Assembly: GCF_044324875.1 (NCBI RefSeq) | Contig: NZ_CP172185.1 | Reading direction: 5' to 3' (one strand) | DNA length: 64,000 bases | Source: Escherichia coli | GTDB lineage: Bacteria; Pseudomonadota; Gammaproteobacteria; Enterobacterales; Enterobacteriaceae | Shown here: positions 11,539-44,566 of the stretch, piece by piece | How positions within the stretch are numbered: the stretch's first letter is position 1 | Layout: the number at the start of each line of letters is the position of its first letter | The notes under the pieces: generated by a model | Seen by the model: only the letters and a program-made list of their open reading frames with translations | What the model was told of the DNA's origin: nothing | Database searches by the model: none | Translations under genes and position numbers: made by a program

Positions 11539-12819
11539 ATGAAGAAAATAAGTTTAACCACGATGATTCTTTTGGCACTGGTACTTGGAATGATTATCGG
11601 CGTAGTGCTCAATAACACTGCTTCACCGGAAACCGCAAAACTCTATGCGCAAGAAATATCGATATTCACGACGATTTTCTTACGACTGATAAAAATGATT
11701 ATCGCTCCGTTAGTGGTCTCTACCCTGGTGGTAGGTATAGCTAAAATGGGCGATGCCAAAGCCCTTGGTCGTATTTTTTCTAAAACACTCTTTTTATTTA
11801 TTTGCGCCTCATTGCTGTCAATTGCCTTAGGCTTGATAACAGTAAATTTCTTCATGCCAGGCACAGGAATTAATTTTGTTGCACACGGAGCCGAAACCAC
11901 CGGAGTGGTCGCGTCAGAACCCTTTACGCTAAAAGTATTTATTTCGCATGCTTTCCCCACCAGCATTGTCGATGCCATGGCGCACAATGAAATTTTGCAA
12001 ATCGTAGTGTTCTCAATTTTCCTCGGCTGTAGCCTGACGGCGATTGGCGAGAAAGGCAGCGCCATCGTTCACGCCTTAGATTCGCTGGCACATGCCATGT
12101 TAAAGCTCACTGGCTACGTCATGCTCTTCGCTCCCCTGACCGTATTCGCCGCTATTTCAGCATTGATTGCTGAACGAGGACTGGCAGTTATGGTGAGCGC
12201 CGGGATCTTTATGGGTGAATTTTATTTCACCATGTTGTTACTTTGGGTGCTGCTTATCGGTCTGGCCATCGTTTATGTCGGCCCCTGCATCAGACGCCTG
12301 ACCCGCGCCCTTTCGGAACCCGCTCTGCTGGCATTTACCACATCCAGTTCTGAAGCGGCTTTTCCGGGAACGCTTGAAAAACTGGAGCAATTTGGCGTTT
12401 CCCCCAAAATTGCCAGCTTTGTCTTACCCATTGGCTACTCATTTAATCTCGTTGGATCAATGGCCTACTGCTCCTTCGCCACAGTTTTCATCGCCCAGGC
12501 CTGCAATATCCATTTATCCATCGGTGAGCAAATCACCATGCTGTTGATCCTGATGTTGACCTCGAAAGGAATGGCTGGCGTACCACGCGCCTCAATGGTG
12601 GTTATCGCCGCCACGCTCAACCAGTTCAATATTCCGGAAGCGGGGCTGATCTTGCTGATGGGCGTTGATCCGTTCCTTGATATGGGGCGTTCCGCGACAA
12701 ACGTCATGAGCAACGCAATGGGCGCTGCGATGGTGAGTCGGTGGGAAGGCGAACATTTCGGCGAGGGTTGTCGGGGTAAAGCATTAAAACCCAATGAATC
12801 GAACGTTGCTCTGCCCTGA
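11539..12819 (+). CDS. dicarboxylate/amino acid:cation symporter (DAACS family, GltP-like); probable glutamate or C4/C5-dicarboxylate carrier
   Basis: Multi-pass hydrophobic protein with DAACS-like sequence; start chosen at the ATG 5 nt after a GGAGG (11529..11533). Confidence 0.75.
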   Translation: MKKISLTTMILLALVLGMIIGVVLNNTASPETAKLYAQEISIFTTIFLRLIKMIIAPLVVSTLVVGIAKMGDAKALGRIFSKTLFLFICASLLSIALGLITVNFFMPGTGINFVAHGAETTGVVASEPFTLKVFISHAFPTSIVDAMAHNEILQIVVFSIFLGCSLTAIGEKGSAIVHALDSLAHAMLKLTGYVMLFAPLTVFAAISALIAERGLAVMVSAGIFMGEFYFTMLLLWVLLIGLAIVYVGPCIRRLTRALSEPALLAFTTSSSEAAFPGTLEKLEQFGVSPKIASFVLPIGYSFNLVGSMAYCSFATVFIAQACNIHLSIGEQITMLLILMLTSKGMAGVPRASMVVIAATLNQFNIPEAGLILLMGVDPFLDMGRSATNVMSNAMGAAMVSRWEGEHFGEGCRGKALKPNESNVALP

Positions 12820-12926
12820 GGGGGATCTTAAGCAATCAGAAGCCAATGACTACGCATTTTTATAAGCCGGATCATGAAGTTAGACGGCAATTAAGTAACA
12901 CTAACGTTTAAGGTGAAAAGTGAAAT

Positions 12927-14579
12927 ATGTCCAAACCATTTATCTGGCAAGAACCGTTTCTACAAAATAAAGACGGTACAGAATATACATTAATTAGCGA
13001 TCAACATATTACAGTAACGGAATTAGACGGCGAAGAAGTGATAAAAATCGCTCCTGAAGCATTAACGCTGCTTGCCCGGCAGGCATTTTATGAAGCCTCT
13101 TTTTTCTTACGTTCCGCTCATTTGCAACAGGTCGCCAGCATTCTTAACGATCCGCAGGCCAGTAGTAATGATAAATACGTTGCGTTGCAGTTATTACGTA
13201 ATGCTGAAGTCTCAGCAAAAGGGGTATTACCCAACTGTCAGGATACCGGCACCGCAACTATTGTTGCCAGTAAAGGGCAACAGATATGGACGGGAGGTAA
13301 CGACGCTGAAGCCTTAAGCAAAGGCATTTACAGTACTTTCCAGGAAAATAATCTGCGCTTTTCACAAAATGCGCCGCTGGATATGTATACCGAAGTCAAT
13401 ACGCAAACCAATCTCCCGGCGCAGATTGATATCAGCGCTGTCGCTGGTAATGAGTACCATTTTCTCTGTGTTAATAAAGGGGGCGGCTCCGCCAATAAAG
13501 CCGCACTTTATCAGGAAACCAAATCCTTATTGCAACCAGAAAAACTGACCGCATTTTTAATCGAAAAAATGAAATCGCTGGGCACCGCTGCCTGCCCGCC
13601 TTACCACATCGCCTTTGTCGTCGGAGGGCTTTCAGCCGATCAAACCTTAAAAGTTGCCAAGCTGGCCTCTACGAAATATTACGACAATTTGCCCACCAGC
13701 GGAAACGAGCAGGGACAAGCATTCCGTGATATTGAGCTGGAAAAAGTGTTGCTCGAGGTCAGTCAGCAATTTGGTATTGGTGCGCAATTTGGGGGTAAAT
13801 ATTTCGCTCATGATATTCGCGTCATTCGTCTGCCGCGTCACGGTGGCTCTTGCCCGATAGCTATGACGCTCTCCTGTTCTGCCGATCGCAATATCAAAGC
13901 AAAAATTAACAAGCACGGTATCTGGCTGGAAAAACTCGAACACAATCCGGGGCAATATATTCCAGCCTCACTGCGGGAAGAAAATCACGCGCAACATGTA
14001 CAACTGGATCTAAACCGTCCGTTGCGTGACGTGATGCAGGATCTCGCCAGATTACCGGTAGGCACCCGCGTGTCGTTAAGTGGTCCCATCGTAGTGGCAC
14101 GCGATATCGCCCACGCCAAAATAAAAGCGCGGCTGGATAACGCCGAACCGATGCCGGATTACCTGAAGCATCATATTGTCTATTACGCTGGCCCGGCGAA
14201 AACACCGGAGAACATGGCCTGCGGTTCACTGGGTCCAACCACGGGCGGTCGAATGGACGGTTATGTCGATACCTTCCAGGCGGCTGGCGGCAGTCTGGTG
14301 ATGTTATCGAAAGGTAACCGCAGCCAGCAGGTCACCGATGCCTGTCACAAACATGGTGGCTTCAATCTGGGTAGTATTGGCGGTGCAGCTGCGTTACTGG
14401 CGCAAGAATATGTCAAAAGTCTGCGTTGCCTGGAATACCCGGAGCTGGGTATGGAAGCGGTGTGGATGATGGAAGTGGAAAATCTGCCCGCATTCATCCT
14501 GGTAGATGATAAAGGCAATAATTTCTTTAGTCAGTTTGAGCAGCAACACCGCTGCGCCAGTTGCCCTGCGGGACATTAA
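12927..14579 (+). CDS. fumD: class I fumarate hydratase family protein (FumA/FumB paralog); probable mesaconase (2-methylfumarate hydratase)
   Basis: 550 aa, collinear high similarity to E. coli FumA (...[11 protein letters not shown]..., ...[13 protein letters not shown]..., ...[13 protein letters not shown]...); location in a methylaspartate-pathway cluster; the fumD name is recalled from E. coli O157:H7 work. Confidence 0.8.
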
Positions 14580-40644: not shown

Positions 40645-40685
40645 CAGGCCAGCACCATGCCTGATAAAACGCTCGCTGCGTTTTA

Positions 40686-42104
40686 TCAGGCTCCTTTCCT
40701 CGCTTCTTCGTACGCTGCCAGCGTTCGCAGCCTTGCCTCTTTATGATCAACTATCGGTTGCGGATAATCCAGCGTCACACCTGATTTATCTGCCCACTTC
40801 CACGGCTCATGCACCACTTTCCCTGGCACATCGCGCAGTTCCGGTAGCCACTGGCGGATAAACTCGCCTTCGCGGTCAAATTTCTCGCCCTGGGTTGTCG
40901 GGTTAAAAATACGAAAATACGGCGCTGCATCGGTTCCGGTTGAAGCGGCCCACTGCCAGCCACCGTTATTAGCTGCCAAATCACCATCAATCAGCTGCGA
41001 CATGAAATATCGCTCGCCTTCGCGCCAGTCGATCAACAAATCTTTCACCAGAAAACTGGCTGTAATCATCCGTAGCCTGTTATGCATCCAGCCAGTGCTG
41101 TTAAGCTGACGCATGGCAGCATCGACAATCGGGTATCCCGTTTTGCCTTCCTGCCAGGCCTGTAAATGTGCGGGATTGCTCTGCCACTGCACACGATCCG
41201 TCCAGGCAATAAACGGACAATGTTTACACAACGAGGGGTAATACGTCATCAGATGACGGTAGAACTCGCGCCAGATCAGCTCACTAAGCCAGACACTACC
41301 GGCCCCACCGTCCAGCGCCTGCGGCTGTTCCGCCAACAAGCGATGCAAACACTGGCGAGGCGATAACCCGCCCGTTGCCAGGCTGGCGGACAAACGACTG
41401 GTGCCTTCCACTGCCGGAAAATCTCGTTGTTGCTCATATTCTCCGGCACCGTTCTGGCAAAACTGGCGTAATTGCGCAATCGCAGCTTTTTCTTCCACCG
41501 GGAAATGCGCAGTATCGAAAGGCTGACGAGGATAATTCAGCGTAATGGATGGCGCGGGAGCTATCGATCCGCTACTACGTACTTTTGGCGCAGCGACGCA
41601 CTCCGGCATCCCTTCTCGCAGCCGTTTCAGCCAGGCGTTTTTAAATGGCGTAAAAACTTTGTACATCTCATGATTGCCAGTCATCACCGCCCCCGGCGGC
41701 AGGATCACGCTGTCATCAAATCCTTCACACACCACGTTACGCAGCGTTCTCTCAACCTGCACATCCCGCGCCCGCTCATTCACCTCATACTGATAGTTAT
41801 AAAAAAGATGAGTAACGCGGTTTTCCGCGCACACCTGATTAACTGTTTCGACACTGGCGGCAAAGTCATCCACTTCACGGAACAATAAAGGAATACCTTT
41901 TTCTGCCAGTGCTGTTTGTAGCCCGTTCAGTTGCGCATTGATAAATTCAGCCTGACGCGGCGACATATTATGCGCTGCCCACTGGCGCGGTGTGGCTATA
42001 TACAGCGCCAGCACGCGTGCAGACGAATTGCGGCAGGCGGCAGCCAGTGCGAGATTATCGTGCAGACGTAAATCCTGGCGAAACCAGACCAGATGGGTAG
42101 TCAT
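40686..42104 (-). CDS. phr: deoxyribodipyrimidine photolyase
   Basis: MTTHLVWFRQDLRLHDNLALAAACRNSSARVLALYIATP...; start set at MTTHL, overlapping the ybgA stop (ATGA). Confidence 0.93.
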   Translation of the reverse strand: MTTHLVWFRQDLRLHDNLALAAACRNSSARVLALYIATPRQWAAHNMSPRQAEFINAQLNGLQTALAEKGIPLLFREVDDFAASVETVNQVCAENRVTHLFYNYQYEVNERARDVQVERTLRNVVCEGFDDSVILPPGAVMTGNHEMYKVFTPFKNAWLKRLREGMPECVAAPKVRSSGSIAPAPSITLNYPRQPFDTAHFPVEEKAAIAQLRQFCQNGAGEYEQQRDFPAVEGTSRLSASLATGGLSPRQCLHRLLAEQPQALDGGAGSVWLSELIWREFYRHLMTYYPSLCKHCPFIAWTDRVQWQSNPAHLQAWQEGKTGYPIVDAAMRQLNSTGWMHNRLRMITASFLVKDLLIDWREGERYFMSQLIDGDLAANNGGWQWAASTGTDAAPYFRIFNPTTQGEKFDREGEFIRQWLPELRDVPGKVVHEPWKWADKSGVTLDYPQPIVDHKEARLRTLAAYEEARKGA

Positions 42105-42610
42105 AAAACTCCTGCATGGCGCAAGTGAATAATACGCGGCCAAAGTTCGAAATAACGCTGCCCTGAAAGCCAGGCGTCAGGATAAAGCGCCATATAGTGT
42201 TTGATACGCATCAGCGGCGCAAGAAGCGGTTGCTCGCCACGGCGATAACTGTCGATAAGCGCCGCCAGCTGCTGGCGTTCTGTGGAATCAATATGTGGGC
42301 GAAAATATCCCTGAACGTGCATCAAAACGTTAGTATGATCACGCCGGTTGGCAGGGTGAGAAAGCAAAACAATTACGCGTTGGCGGTACTGGTTGTAATA
42401 GTCATCCAGATTTTGCCACCGGTGAATATCTGCCACGAACGGGCCAAGTTTGCGGTACTCGGGCTGGGAATGGGCCAGAAAGACGAGTTTATAGCGGCTG
42501 TGATAATCGTTGAGTGCCCCGCGCGTTAAGCCATGTTCTTTCAGTCGATGTAACTCGTGGAGAGCGAAGATACGGATTAGGGTGCTTTCATCAAATCGTT
42601 GCTGATTCAT
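42101..42610 (-). CDS. ybgA: DUF1722-family protein, cotranscribed with phr
   Basis: 169-aa ORF directly upstream of and overlapping phr, as in K-12. Confidence 0.85.
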   Translation of the reverse strand: MNQQRFDESTLIRIFALHELHRLKEHGLTRGALNDYHSRYKLVFLAHSQPEYRKLGPFVADIHRWQNLDDYYNQYRQRVIVLLSHPANRRDHTNVLMHVQGYFRPHIDSTERQQLAALIDSYRRGEQPLLAPLMRIKHYMALYPDAWLSGQRYFELWPRIIHLRHAGVL

Positions 42611-42694
42611 TACTGCTCCTGAACGGTTTACAGGAGTAAGTGTAGACGGCAGTATTGAAAAAACGAAACGAATAAATGAGATCGGTAAAGAAAT

Positions 42695-43102
42695 TCAATA
42701 ACTCATAATAAATTTCATGGTGGCGATAAATAGTTTCTTTTCTTCATCACTCATGGTAGAAGCGTTTAACATGTTGCCATAAAATTTACTGATGATATTT
42801 TTTAATTGCAGCAAATGCAAAGGAGAAAAATAGTCACTCCCGATGAGATTACTCAATACCAGCAATAATTCTCCATTATATAAATAACCTACCATAAGAT
42901 TAATCTCTATCATCTCAATTGCTTTTTGTACAGCAAGCGCTGGTAAGATATTCTGACGAAGCATTTTGGCAATATCATTTTCATCCAGTTCATCCGGTGT
43001 TTTATCCAATAAAGAGTTATACCAGTTTATTAAACCACTTTTGAAAGCGAATGAATCATATTGCAGGTGATAAATCTGTTTTAGGGTTTCTTTATTTTTC
43101 AT
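42695..43102 (-). CDS. hypothetical small protein, 135 aa, low-GC
   Basis: ORF in an AT-rich block; 12-bp gap from the upstream 94-aa ORF; no recognisable family. Confidence 0.45.
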   Translation of the reverse strand: MKNKETLKQIYHLQYDSFAFKSGLINWYNSLLDKTPDELDENDIAKMLRQNILPALAVQKAIEMIEINLMVGYLYNGELLLVLSNLIGSDYFSPLHLLQLKNIISKFYGNMLNASTMSDEEKKLFIATMKFIMSY

Positions 43103-43114
43103 TTTATAATGTCT

Positions 43115-43399
43115 TTATTTGCTATGATTTTTCTGATTTAATTCTATATCATTTAAAGCATTTTCAAGCCAATCATCCATGTTCTTAATTTTAGCCCGCT
43201 CATACAAATCATGCACAACATCTTCATAACGCCGTCCATCATTGACCATACAATTAGCTGTATGAGGCAGAACATGTATAAAATCAGACAATATAAAACA
43301 AGCCTTTGCATTTCCAGAGTTAGCTGCAGTTCTGATATCAATCAAGCCTCTGGCAATTAATTTAAGAATAACACTAACATCTTGCATTTTAATTTCCAT
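43115..43399 (-). CDS. hypothetical small protein, 94 aa, low-GC
   Basis: ORF in an AT-rich block, tandem with its neighbours. Confidence 0.4.
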   Translation of the reverse strand: MEIKMQDVSVILKLIARGLIDIRTAANSGNAKACFILSDFIHVLPHTANCMVNDGRRYEDVVHDLYERAKIKNMDDWLENALNDIELNQKNHSK

Positions 43400-43481
43400 A
43401 TCATCCAGTTAAATTTTAGTCGTAAATCGTCTATCTAAAAAAGATGAAATTAACATTTATAAATTTATTACAATATAAAAA

Positions 43482-43835
43482 TCAAAAATATACATCATCA
43501 GCTTCTACTGAAAACTCCATGGCTCCTAAGGCACCTAAATCAATACTAAATATGGTATCACTTTCCTTAGCACTCCCAACATAGATAAAATAGCCTAAAT
43601 CCCCATCCTGACCTATCAAAAAATAGTCAGGCTCCACTCGTTGAATATCATATGTTTCATTTCTTTCAATAAGATCAGAATAGTTATACAGATATAATAT
43701 TTCATGCTTCTTATTAGTTATTTCATAGGCCTCACTATCTTTAATTTCTTCTATTAAGAAACGTTTATACACTGGAGGAAATTTGATTGACATGTCAAAT
43801 TCAATTTTATTTATATATTCTATGATTTTATTCAT
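43482..43835 (-). CDS. hypothetical small protein, 117 aa; possible SUKH/Smi1-Knr4-like immunity protein
   Basis: FPPVYKRFLIEEI... near the N-terminus and ...FLIGQDGDLGYFIYVG... later resemble SUKH-family motifs by eye; low-GC. Needs a profile search. Confidence 0.4.
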   Translation of the reverse strand: MNKIIEYINKIEFDMSIKFPPVYKRFLIEEIKDSEAYEITNKKHEILYLYNYSDLIERNETYDIQRVEPDYFLIGQDGDLGYFIYVGSAKESDTIFSIDLGALGAMEFSVEADDVYF

Positions 43836-44074
43836 GTTAAGAATACCTGAGCGGTTAATTATCGGTTATTGTGATGAATATATATTCGCTTTTAATTTTC
43901 AATAACTCATCACGGAAATACATATTGCTTTGTAGGCAAGCGCTAATAATACTTTATGAACCTGACTTCCGCCAGATATTCAACCTAAATATTCATGACG
44001 CAGTAATGTTTTAGAAAGCCACTAACTGCCCAGATAGTGCATCATCTACTACATTGGCGATTATACTCTAAATA

Positions 44075-44272
44075 ATTCAAGTTGCAGGAAGGCGACAAGC
44101 GAGTGACAAATTCGTCAGGAACGAATTTGCCCAGTCGCAGGCTGACCTTCGGTGAGAGACATGGATGTCTCTCATTAATCCCCAGGAGCTTACATAAGTA
44201 AGTGACTGGGGTGAACGAACGCAGTCGCAGCACATGCAACTTGAAGTATGACGAGTATATAAAAAACCCCTG
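44075..44272. repeat. ERIC (IRU) element, long form
   Basis: Contains ...aatccccaggagcttacataagtaagtgactggggtgaacg..., the central inverted repeat from which the standard ERIC1R/ERIC2 primers derive, flanked by further hairpins (gagagacatggatgtctctc, caaattcgtcaggaacgaatttg). Confidence 0.75.
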
Positions 44273-44302
44273 ATTCCAGTTCCTTGTGCTGCGATCCTAA
44301 CC

Positions 44303-44337
44303 AAAAAAAAACCGCCAGCGTTTCCGCTGGCGGTTTT
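44303..44337. terminator. bidirectional intrinsic terminator downstream of ybfA
   Basis: A9-ccgccagcg-tttc-cgctggcgg-TTTT: perfect 9-bp stem flanked by A-run and T-run. Confidence 0.7.
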
Positions 44338-44359
44338 CAATGTATTCAGAACTCAGCAA

Positions 44360-44566
44360 TCAGTAAAAATCACCGGTTGCCTTTTCGGCCTGATCCATCC
44401 AAACCGGTTTATCGCTGGTTTTCGACCAGACGCGATGCAGATAGCTGTAAAAGCGGGCGCGGTCTTTCCAGAAAAGCATGAAAGGCAGCGCCAGAACGCC
44501 CACTGCAACCGCATAAGTACGGCGTAAAAAGATAAGCCATGCAGGATATTCTCTGTAGAGTTCCAT
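44360..44566 (-). CDS. ybfA: DUF2517-family small protein
   Basis: 68-aa [71 protein letters not shown]; K-12 position next to kdpF. Confidence 0.85.

Follow-up and report, generated by a model that had tools for sequence, protein, structure and literature searches.

Three tandem immunity-gene homologues without a toxin gene at the ybfA-ybgA Rhs hot spot of Escherichia coli

What are three small, AT-rich genes doing at a chromosomal site where Escherichia coli K-12 carries the rhsC element? The question is raised by a stretch of 64,000 nucleotides of E. coli DNA (NCBI RefSeq assembly GCF_044324875.1, contig NZ_CP172185.1; "the window" hereafter), in which the space between ybgA (42101-42610, minus strand) and ybfA (44360-44566, minus strand) is filled by a 1.66-kb variable island (~42647-44306, with breakpoints taken from locus alignments) made up of an enterobacterial repetitive intergenic consensus (ERIC) element and a cassette of three genes, orfA, orfB and orfC. 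A preliminary description had reported three co-oriented small open reading frames (ORFs) of 117, 94 and 135 aa in an AT-rich block, in the place where K-12 has rhsC, and had proposed an orphan immunity cassette. The layout was recovered in full: all three ORFs are present on the minus strand, the G+C content is 31.2% in the island and 30–33% in the three ORFs against 50.7% in the window overall, and the K-12 gene order at the site is ybfA-rhsC-ybfB-ybfO-ybfC-ybfQ-ybfL-ybfD-ybgA. Our analysis supports the proposal and extends it, in that each of the three ORFs is homologous to immunity proteins and neither a toxin gene nor a remnant of one was found in the window. We consider it likely that what occupies this Rhs hot spot is a heterogeneous polyimmunity locus of small size, in which immunity genes of three unrelated families stand in tandem with no toxin.

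The first gene of the array, orfA (43482-43835, minus strand, 117 aa), is a homologue of the SUKH-1 (SMI1/KNR4) immunity proteins. The SUKH/Smi1-Knr4 features that had been noticed in its product are borne out by a match to the Pfam family SMI1_KNR4 (SUKH-1) with E = 2.3e-4, with weaker matches to SUKH_5 and SUKH_6, and by a match in the PDB to 3D5P, a Smi1/Knr4-family protein, with E = 6.6e-6; its homologues also have precomputed matches to PF09346. The relatives in E. marmotae and Cronobacter (P0075 and P0076) are 69–70% identical over the full length and are single-domain proteins of 117–120 aa, encoded 20 bp 3′ of PAAR-Rhs proteins that end in a Tox-SHH domain. These Rhs-Tox-SHH/orfA-like pairs sit in VgrG-DcrB-Rhs clusters, which are type VI secretion system (T6SS) loci. 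In other Cronobacter strains the same orfA-like gene is orphaned behind an Rhs protein with a different end, and orfA itself adjoins no toxin gene.

The last gene, orfC (42695-43102, minus strand, 135 aa), is a homologue of the CdiI_3 immunity proteins of contact-dependent growth inhibition (CDI). It matches CdiI_3 (PF18616) at E = 5.9e-17 over residues 10-85 and, in a phmmer search of the PDB, chain C of 5J5V, "Immunity protein CdiI", at E = 1.7e-5 over residues 22-114. In RefSeq the product is annotated as "contact-dependent growth inhibition system immunity protein". The 5J5V structure, from uropathogenic E. coli (UPEC) 536, is that of the CysK:CdiA-CT:CdiI complex, in which CdiI covers the tRNA-binding face of the CysK-activated anticodon-loop tRNase (PMC11724271). 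The upstream neighbour of orfC is orfB, 12 bp away, and no cdiA, cdiB or rhs gene lies in the window. Its close homologues are all found at the same toxin-less ybfA-ybgA site, and the gene is kept beside ybgA in E. albertii and E. fergusonii.

The middle gene, orfB (43115-43399, minus strand), lies 82 bp from orfA. Its longest ORF encodes 94 aa, and the probable start is the second ATG (43387), which gives 90 aa and is favoured both by RefSeq and by alignment of the homologues. No match was found in Pfam or NCBIfam, and none of 40 relatives scanned with Pfam had a domain. Close relatives occur in E. coli and E. fergusonii only; a full HMMER search of 1.84 billion representative proteins added 59 distant ones, either 80–110 aa long or, as tandem duplications, ~175 aa. 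Common to them is the core L.R.LLDIR.A...D..H..P...W, and in an alignment of 40 sequences R23 and W77 are invariant, with I22, D39, H42 and P45 nearly so. The AlphaFold2 model is a five-helix bundle (predicted local distance difference test score 94.5), with which fold searches were uninformative. Many of the distant relatives, among them P0117, P0118, P0124, P0130 and P0132, are tandem duplications of the orfB domain within a single protein of 170–185 aa, and are in that sense "polyimmunity proteins" of the family.

It is the gene neighbourhoods of this family that point to its function. A hand-made degenerate DNA motif, applied to one genome per species, led to eight orfB-like loci, in four of which the orfB-like gene stands directly 3′ of a gene ending in one shared domain of ~90 aa. 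The same pairing occurs in one metagenome contig and in a fused protein, P0141. Pairings of orfB relatives with this putative toxin are seen in L013, L016, L017, L020, L021 and P0141 and, within E. coli, in L035 and L036. The shared domain reads ...NP.N.DPIKINT.TGKVVDGNSR.YELQRRA.DP.SSITPDT..., with a DGNxR motif, and its model resembles ParB/sulfiredoxin folds. In Hahella the protein upstream of the orfB relative carries the Pfam RHS domain, in the metagenome contig the shared domain begins right after a ...DPLGL boundary, and in Dictyobacter it comes after a Hint-like segment. The contexts of P0110, P0112 and P0113 are short metagenome contigs with no clear toxin; apart from the pairings, the contexts that were inspected are orphan or likewise on short contigs.

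The pairing extends to E. coli itself. A sensitive blastn search of complete E. coli genomes with the cassette found an orfB paralogue (WP_000786991.1; 54% protein identity) in ~100 further genomes, 1 bp after a gene for a 1,497-aa "RHS element core protein" and beside Hcp and VgrG. The end of this Rhs protein is the same ParB-like domain, 63% identical to the domain in Hahella, and its home is the T6SS locus yafV-ivy-fadE, which is also where E. marmotae keeps its Rhs-Tox-SHH/orfA-like pair. Sequence core, model and neighbourhoods support the view that orfB belongs to a real five-helix immunity family, paired elsewhere with Rhs toxins that have a predicted ParB/sulfiredoxin-fold end.

Several variations on this arrangement were seen along the way. 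The E. coli strains AMSHJX01 (L035:6986-11738; Rhs WP_000508713.1) and PapM-36-2 (L036:6986-11737) both have the Hcp-VgrG-linked Rhs with the ParB-like end and, after it, an immunity gene of 85 aa. Loss of the stop codon in PapM-36-2 means that toxin and immunity protein are annotated there as a single protein of 1,584 aa, a fusion of toxin tail and immunity domain comparable to that of the metagenome protein P0141. On two short metagenome contigs (L010:1-497 and L012:217-1810) orfB relatives stand beside small genes typical of immunity arrays. One neighbour of an orfB relative encodes a CPCC-type cysteine-rich protein, its stop codon overlapping the orfB-like start by 4 bp, and another encodes a DUF6985 protein.

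Is there, then, a toxin to go with the cassette? Scanning the 64-kb window for the Rhs boundary motif PxxxxDPxGL gave no match, and no ORF in it exceeds 933 aa, so that the window holds neither an Rhs core nor a CdiA, in agreement with the earlier claim that an Rhs core is missing. When the toxin-like protein of E. albertii and the SHH and ParB-like proteins were used as tblastn queries on the window, no match was better than E = 0.1. Beyond the window, the genomes with the cassette (170) and those with the Rhs-ParB module (~100) are essentially disjoint sets, the two occupying 271 places in 270 records, and none of the 5,426 complete E. coli genomes had detectable DNA for the E. marmotae SHH domain. 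Strain 118UI carries a cassette 100% identical to that of the window, and in this one cassette-bearing genome inspected at yafV the T6SS locus is present without Rhs. That locus (L037:16819-29081) contains a truncated VgrG pseudogene, a gene for a DUF4123 adaptor and, with it, two hypothetical genes (together probably an effector set that does not involve Rhs), and copies of the insertion sequence (IS) ISAs1, one of which is broken by a group II intron.

Comparison of the locus across E. coli strains, which the preliminary description had put forward as a check, revealed rhsC, another Rhs island, an empty site or the cassette at one and the same place. The cassette is found in 170 of the 5,426 complete genomes, always in single copy, on the chromosome and at this site; it is at least 99% identical to the window in 156 genomes and ~92% identical in 14. 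A K-12-type ybfA-rhsC junction is present in ~68% of E. coli genomes, and other strains have an empty site or a different island, DcrB-Rhs-SymE, as in strain CEC15. In the ~92% form, ERIC is absent and orfB is cut at its 3′ end by ~800 bp of inserted DNA, in which lie a fragment of IS630, the glycine-rich tail of a toxin (46 aa) and a 155-aa gene; this four-gene form also turns up in genomes with proteins labelled as E. fergusonii. The layout of three genes is retained in a third allele of E. coli. E. albertii, in which the order is ybfA, a 147-aa gene, a 240-aa toxin-like gene, the 155-aa gene, orfC and ybgA, shares only orfC and the 155-aa gene with the other forms. The ORFs are intact in each lineage compared, all three of them in E. 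fergusonii as well as in every one of the three alleles of E. coli, and orfC in E. albertii, and always lie between ybfA and ybgA. Two of the three genes are "hypothetical protein" in RefSeq in most genomes. In two hospital-wastewater isolates (NZ_CP146564.1 and NZ_CP146571.1) the otherwise identical block (window 42611-44359) is split by IS1.

The additional genes of the sister islands deserve a description of their own. In E. albertii the 240-aa gene (L005:8767-9489) stands alone and has a glycine-zipper-like hydrophobic C-terminus (...AGAVAGGAMAGLMCGPGAPVCVLIGGFVGGALAAWEMGRLWN); the 155-aa gene (9492-9959) follows it. The E. fergusonii-type island retains the last 46 codons of the 240-aa gene together with the 155-aa gene, next to the IS630 fragment (L002:12975-13115 and 12505-12972; L003:13063-13182). 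Neither the 240-aa nor the 155-aa protein has a match in Pfam, NCBIfam or the PDB sequences. The two genes look like a membrane-active toxin/immunity pair caught in decay.

Could the cassette be such a decaying relic too, its immunity genes left behind when the toxin part of an Rhs or CDI element was deleted, and now silent and drifting? The site is an Rhs hot spot, as the ybfA-rhsC junction and the CEC15 DcrB-Rhs island make plain, and the sister islands do keep a toxin tail with an IS630 fragment, or a toxin-like gene, beside an immunity-like gene; AT-rich DNA, weak translation signals and carriage in only 3% of genomes would also suit a relic. The pattern of conservation disfavours it, however. 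We compared the alleles by pairwise Nei-Gojobori estimates of the ratio of nonsynonymous to synonymous divergence (dN/dS), which involve small numbers of substitutions. For orfA, dN/dS is 0.03–0.05, with dS of 0.23 when the 92% form is compared with either of the other two alleles and of 0 between the window and the third allele. For orfB, dN/dS is 0.25–0.48, with dS of 0.13–0.21 for the 92% form against the other two and 0.04 for the window against the third allele, and for orfC it is 0.22–0.52, with dS of 0.13–0.24 among the three E. coli alleles. The flanking genes, compared with the window, give dN/dS of 0.05–0.20 and dS of 0.10–0.14 (ybgA and ybfA) and dN/dS of 0.10 and dS of 0.24–0.32 (phr). 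The three genes are intact and constrained, under purifying selection, and have diverged along with their core-genome surroundings: synonymous divergence is that of the core flanks and dN/dS is well under 1. Nor does the block look like rubble. It has the appearance of a tidied array, with no remnant of an Rhs core or toxin domain and gaps of just 82 and 12 bp, and since its three immunity families are tied to different toxin classes, one lost toxin cannot account for all of them. We therefore regard a silent relic as improbable.

A second alternative concerns the borders of the island and the genes beyond them. The gene order in the window is dtpD (plus strand), phr and ybgA (both minus), the variable block, ybfA (minus) and kdpFAB (plus). 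Aligning the window with K-12, three empty-site strains and the CEC15 Rhs island shows two identical breakpoints in every variant. On the left, the break falls directly past the T run of the intrinsic terminator of ybfA (44307-44338, minus strand, a 14-pair stem followed by the T run), which is kept in all locus types. On the right, it falls directly before CGTCTACACTTACT, 36–37 bp upstream of the ybgA start codon; the conserved leader before ybgA (CGTCTACACTTACTCCTGTAAACCGTTCAGGAGCAGTA, 42611-42646, minus strand) is the same or almost the same in the window, K-12, the empty-site strains and CEC15. No recombinase gene lies between ybfA and ybgA in the window. On the far side of phr, the dtpD-phr spacer (window 40645-40685) is 41 bp long in the window and in 118UI and ~149 bp in K-12 and in the lineage of the 92% variant, probably a matter of a repetitive extragenic palindromic (REP) element present or absent; a weak naRNA4/REP-like Rfam match (E = 0.28) overlaps it.

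The ERIC element lies between the ybfA terminator and orfA. It is of the long form, ~198 bp (44062-44259), and its identity, already proposed in the preliminary description, rests on inverted-repeat arms at 44062-44086 and 44235-44259, on the ERIC2 and ERIC1R primer sites with one and two mismatches (none being expected by chance) and on a copy number for the stretch with a median of 7 per E. coli genome. Rfam gave only sub-threshold matches in the region, of which that to V_AS5 coincides with ERIC. At the junction of ERIC and the rest of the island a candidate sigma-70 promoter is predicted (44060-44087, minus strand), with CTGCAA and TATAAT separated by a 16-nt spacer; a stricter scan called no promoter at this position. 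The TATAAT (44060-44065) is perfect, and in the variant island that has no ERIC it follows directly after the ybfA terminator, so ERIC seems to have been inserted just upstream of a −10 box that is conserved at the island edge.

With these signals in view, the cassette might be read as the upstream part of the ybgA-phr operon, supplying a promoter, read-through or proteins of the same pathway, its likeness to immunity genes being incidental. The three genes are oriented as ybgA-phr, and a terminator scan predicted no intrinsic terminator between orfC and ybgA, so that read-through from the cassette into ybgA-phr, and with it the co-transcription that the preliminary description had raised as another option, is possible. 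Moreover, because only 36–37 bp of upstream DNA are conserved, the ybgA-phr promoter must lie in whichever island is present, or else the operon depends on read-through from ybfA or the island; expression of the photolyase may thus differ between locus types. Against a dedicated role of this kind, ybgA-phr is intact in empty-site and rhsC strains, so the cassette is not needed for the operon, and profiles, structural homologues and gene neighbourhoods speak for immunity in all three genes. An effect on ybgA-phr is possible as a side effect; as an explanation of the cassette we find it very unlikely. A role as antitoxin-like, anti-phage or regulatory genes unrelated to interbacterial toxins would fit genes that are small, AT-rich and placed in a variable island, like those of many defence islands, and SUKH domains are indeed found in varied contexts (PMC3482391), but it is scarcely credible here, given that the island has no partner toxin gene, that PADLOC found nothing convincing for the three proteins (its sole match, to orfC at E = 0.0074, had no matched stretch), and that the gene neighbourhoods point specifically to Rhs/T6SS and CDI toxins. 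NCBIfam yielded no family for the three proteins.

We return, then, to the small polyimmunity locus. What such loci are known by is what we find: the genes are tandem and co-oriented, they belong to three unrelated families, no toxin gene accompanies them, and their content varies by strain and species. Several observations weigh on the other side. With three genes the array is smaller than the "extended" polyimmunity loci, which have four or more and often an adjacent recombinase. Immunity proteins are usually allele-specific, and identity to toxin-linked relatives is just 54–70% for orfA and orfB and ~25% to CdiI-EC536 for orfC. DNA as poor in G+C as this (31%) is typically the kind that H-NS silences, the Shine-Dalgarno sequences are weak, and the cassette promoter is only a modest candidate. 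The dN/dS of orfB and orfC, from few substitutions, reaches ~0.5. Finally, of the complete E. coli genomes only 3% have the cassette, and the site is empty in many lineages, from which it follows that any benefit must be conditional.

If the polyimmunity reading is right, each cassette product would be cytoplasmic and would bind and block one class of the nuclease-type toxins that non-kin Escherichia, or other members of the Enterobacteriaceae, inject. The target of orfA would be the Tox-SHH (HNH-type) C-terminal domain of Rhs proteins and that of orfB the putative ParB/sulfiredoxin-fold C-terminal domain, both delivered by the T6SS. For orfC, the predicted target is a tRNase like CdiA-CT-EC536, of the Ntox28 type, delivered by CDI or on an Rhs protein, whose substrate-binding face the immunity protein would cover as CdiI-EC536 does. 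The host would in this way be shielded from toxins not of its own making. Expression of the cassette, actual neutralisation and the range of toxin alleles covered are what we infer.

How such an array came about can be approached from two sides. For an origin by toxin loss speak the E. fergusonii and E. albertii forms, which keep a toxin fragment or toxin-like gene beside an extra immunity-like gene; for an array that was always immunity-only speak the closeness of the three genes and the lack of any Rhs or C-terminal-domain remnant. Because the sister islands do keep the toxin tail or the toxin-like gene, the comparison of their sequences suggests that modules enter the hot spot as toxin/immunity pairs and later lose the toxin part. 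We would go further only with about equal confidence for and against: orfB may represent an unrecognised immunity family of ~85 aa and five helices, with an unannotated T6SS-Rhs toxin of ParB/sulfiredoxin fold as its partner, and the cassette may be an old shield, maintained by selection across the genus, that gathers immunities against the alternative Rhs C-termini of the yafV-ivy-fadE locus (SHH in E. marmotae, ParB-fold in E. coli).

Orphan immunity genes are thought to shape the coexistence of strains in the gut, and few have been pinned down in E. coli. The locus offers a compact test case, with three genes at a defined site and natural alleles that are empty, Rhs-bearing or immunity-only, and natural candidate attackers are identified in the Rhs-Tox-SHH proteins of E. 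marmotae and Cronobacter and the Rhs-ParB-fold proteins of E. coli. Two genes listed as "hypothetical protein" in RefSeq receive a putative role, and an unannotated protein family is tied to an unannotated Rhs toxin domain, both of them candidates for the family databases. Full-text searches of the literature, by the RefSeq accessions of the proteins and for Rhs effectors of ParB-like type, returned no paper describing the locus or the orfB family. Polyimmunity loci and orphan immunity genes are known as a kind, and no current view is overturned; what we did not find in the searched literature is this locus, the link of the orfB family to Rhs proteins with a putative ParB fold, and a single E. 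coli site that is by turns immunity-only, Rhs-bearing or empty.

How does the cassette compare with systems already described? At the level of single genes, orfA resembles the SUKH immunity proteins of E. marmotae and Cronobacter in sequence and length, but those genes follow their toxin in a VgrG-DcrB-Rhs locus and orfA has no toxin partner. Likewise, orfC matches both the profile and the solved protein of UPEC 536 CdiI over ~93 residues, though its identity is, by eye, roughly a quarter and no cdiBA operon is near.

As a whole, the cassette is closest to the heterogeneous polyimmunity loci, for which pre-emptive protection against the toxins of non-kin has been proposed (Zhang, de Souza, Anantharaman, Iyer & Aravind 2012, Biol Direct 7:18; PMC3482391). 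Like these, it is a strain-variable series of tandem, co-oriented and close-set unrelated immunity genes, SUKH among them, with no adjacent toxin. It differs from them in being held at a fixed core-genome site where it alternates with Rhs elements and an empty site, and in containing a family, orfB, that lies outside the Pfam Imm families; from the extended loci it differs in gene number and in having no adjacent recombinase.

The orphan rhs-CT/immunity and cdiA-CT/cdiI modules (Poole et al. 2011, PMC3150448; Koskiniemi et al. 2014, PMC3967940) are alike in that immunity genes stand without a full-length toxin, and in K-12 the cassette site itself holds rhsC with its orphan modules. The classical modules, however, have a piece of rhs or cdiA toxin domain before each immunity gene and lie downstream of a full-length toxin gene; the cassette has neither a core nor a toxin-domain fragment, and only the E. 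fergusonii-type and E. albertii islands keep one.

A further parallel is with the acquired interbacterial defence (AID) clusters of gut Bacteroidales, reported by Ross et al. in Nature in 2019, which are said to be arrays of orphan immunity genes that protect against the T6SS effectors of competitors. The cassette shares with them the arrangement of orphan immunity genes in an array. The AID systems, which can be long, are reported to reside on mobile elements that carry recombinases, whereas the ybfA-ybgA cassette is a short chromosomal array that keeps one position and is common to several Escherichia species.

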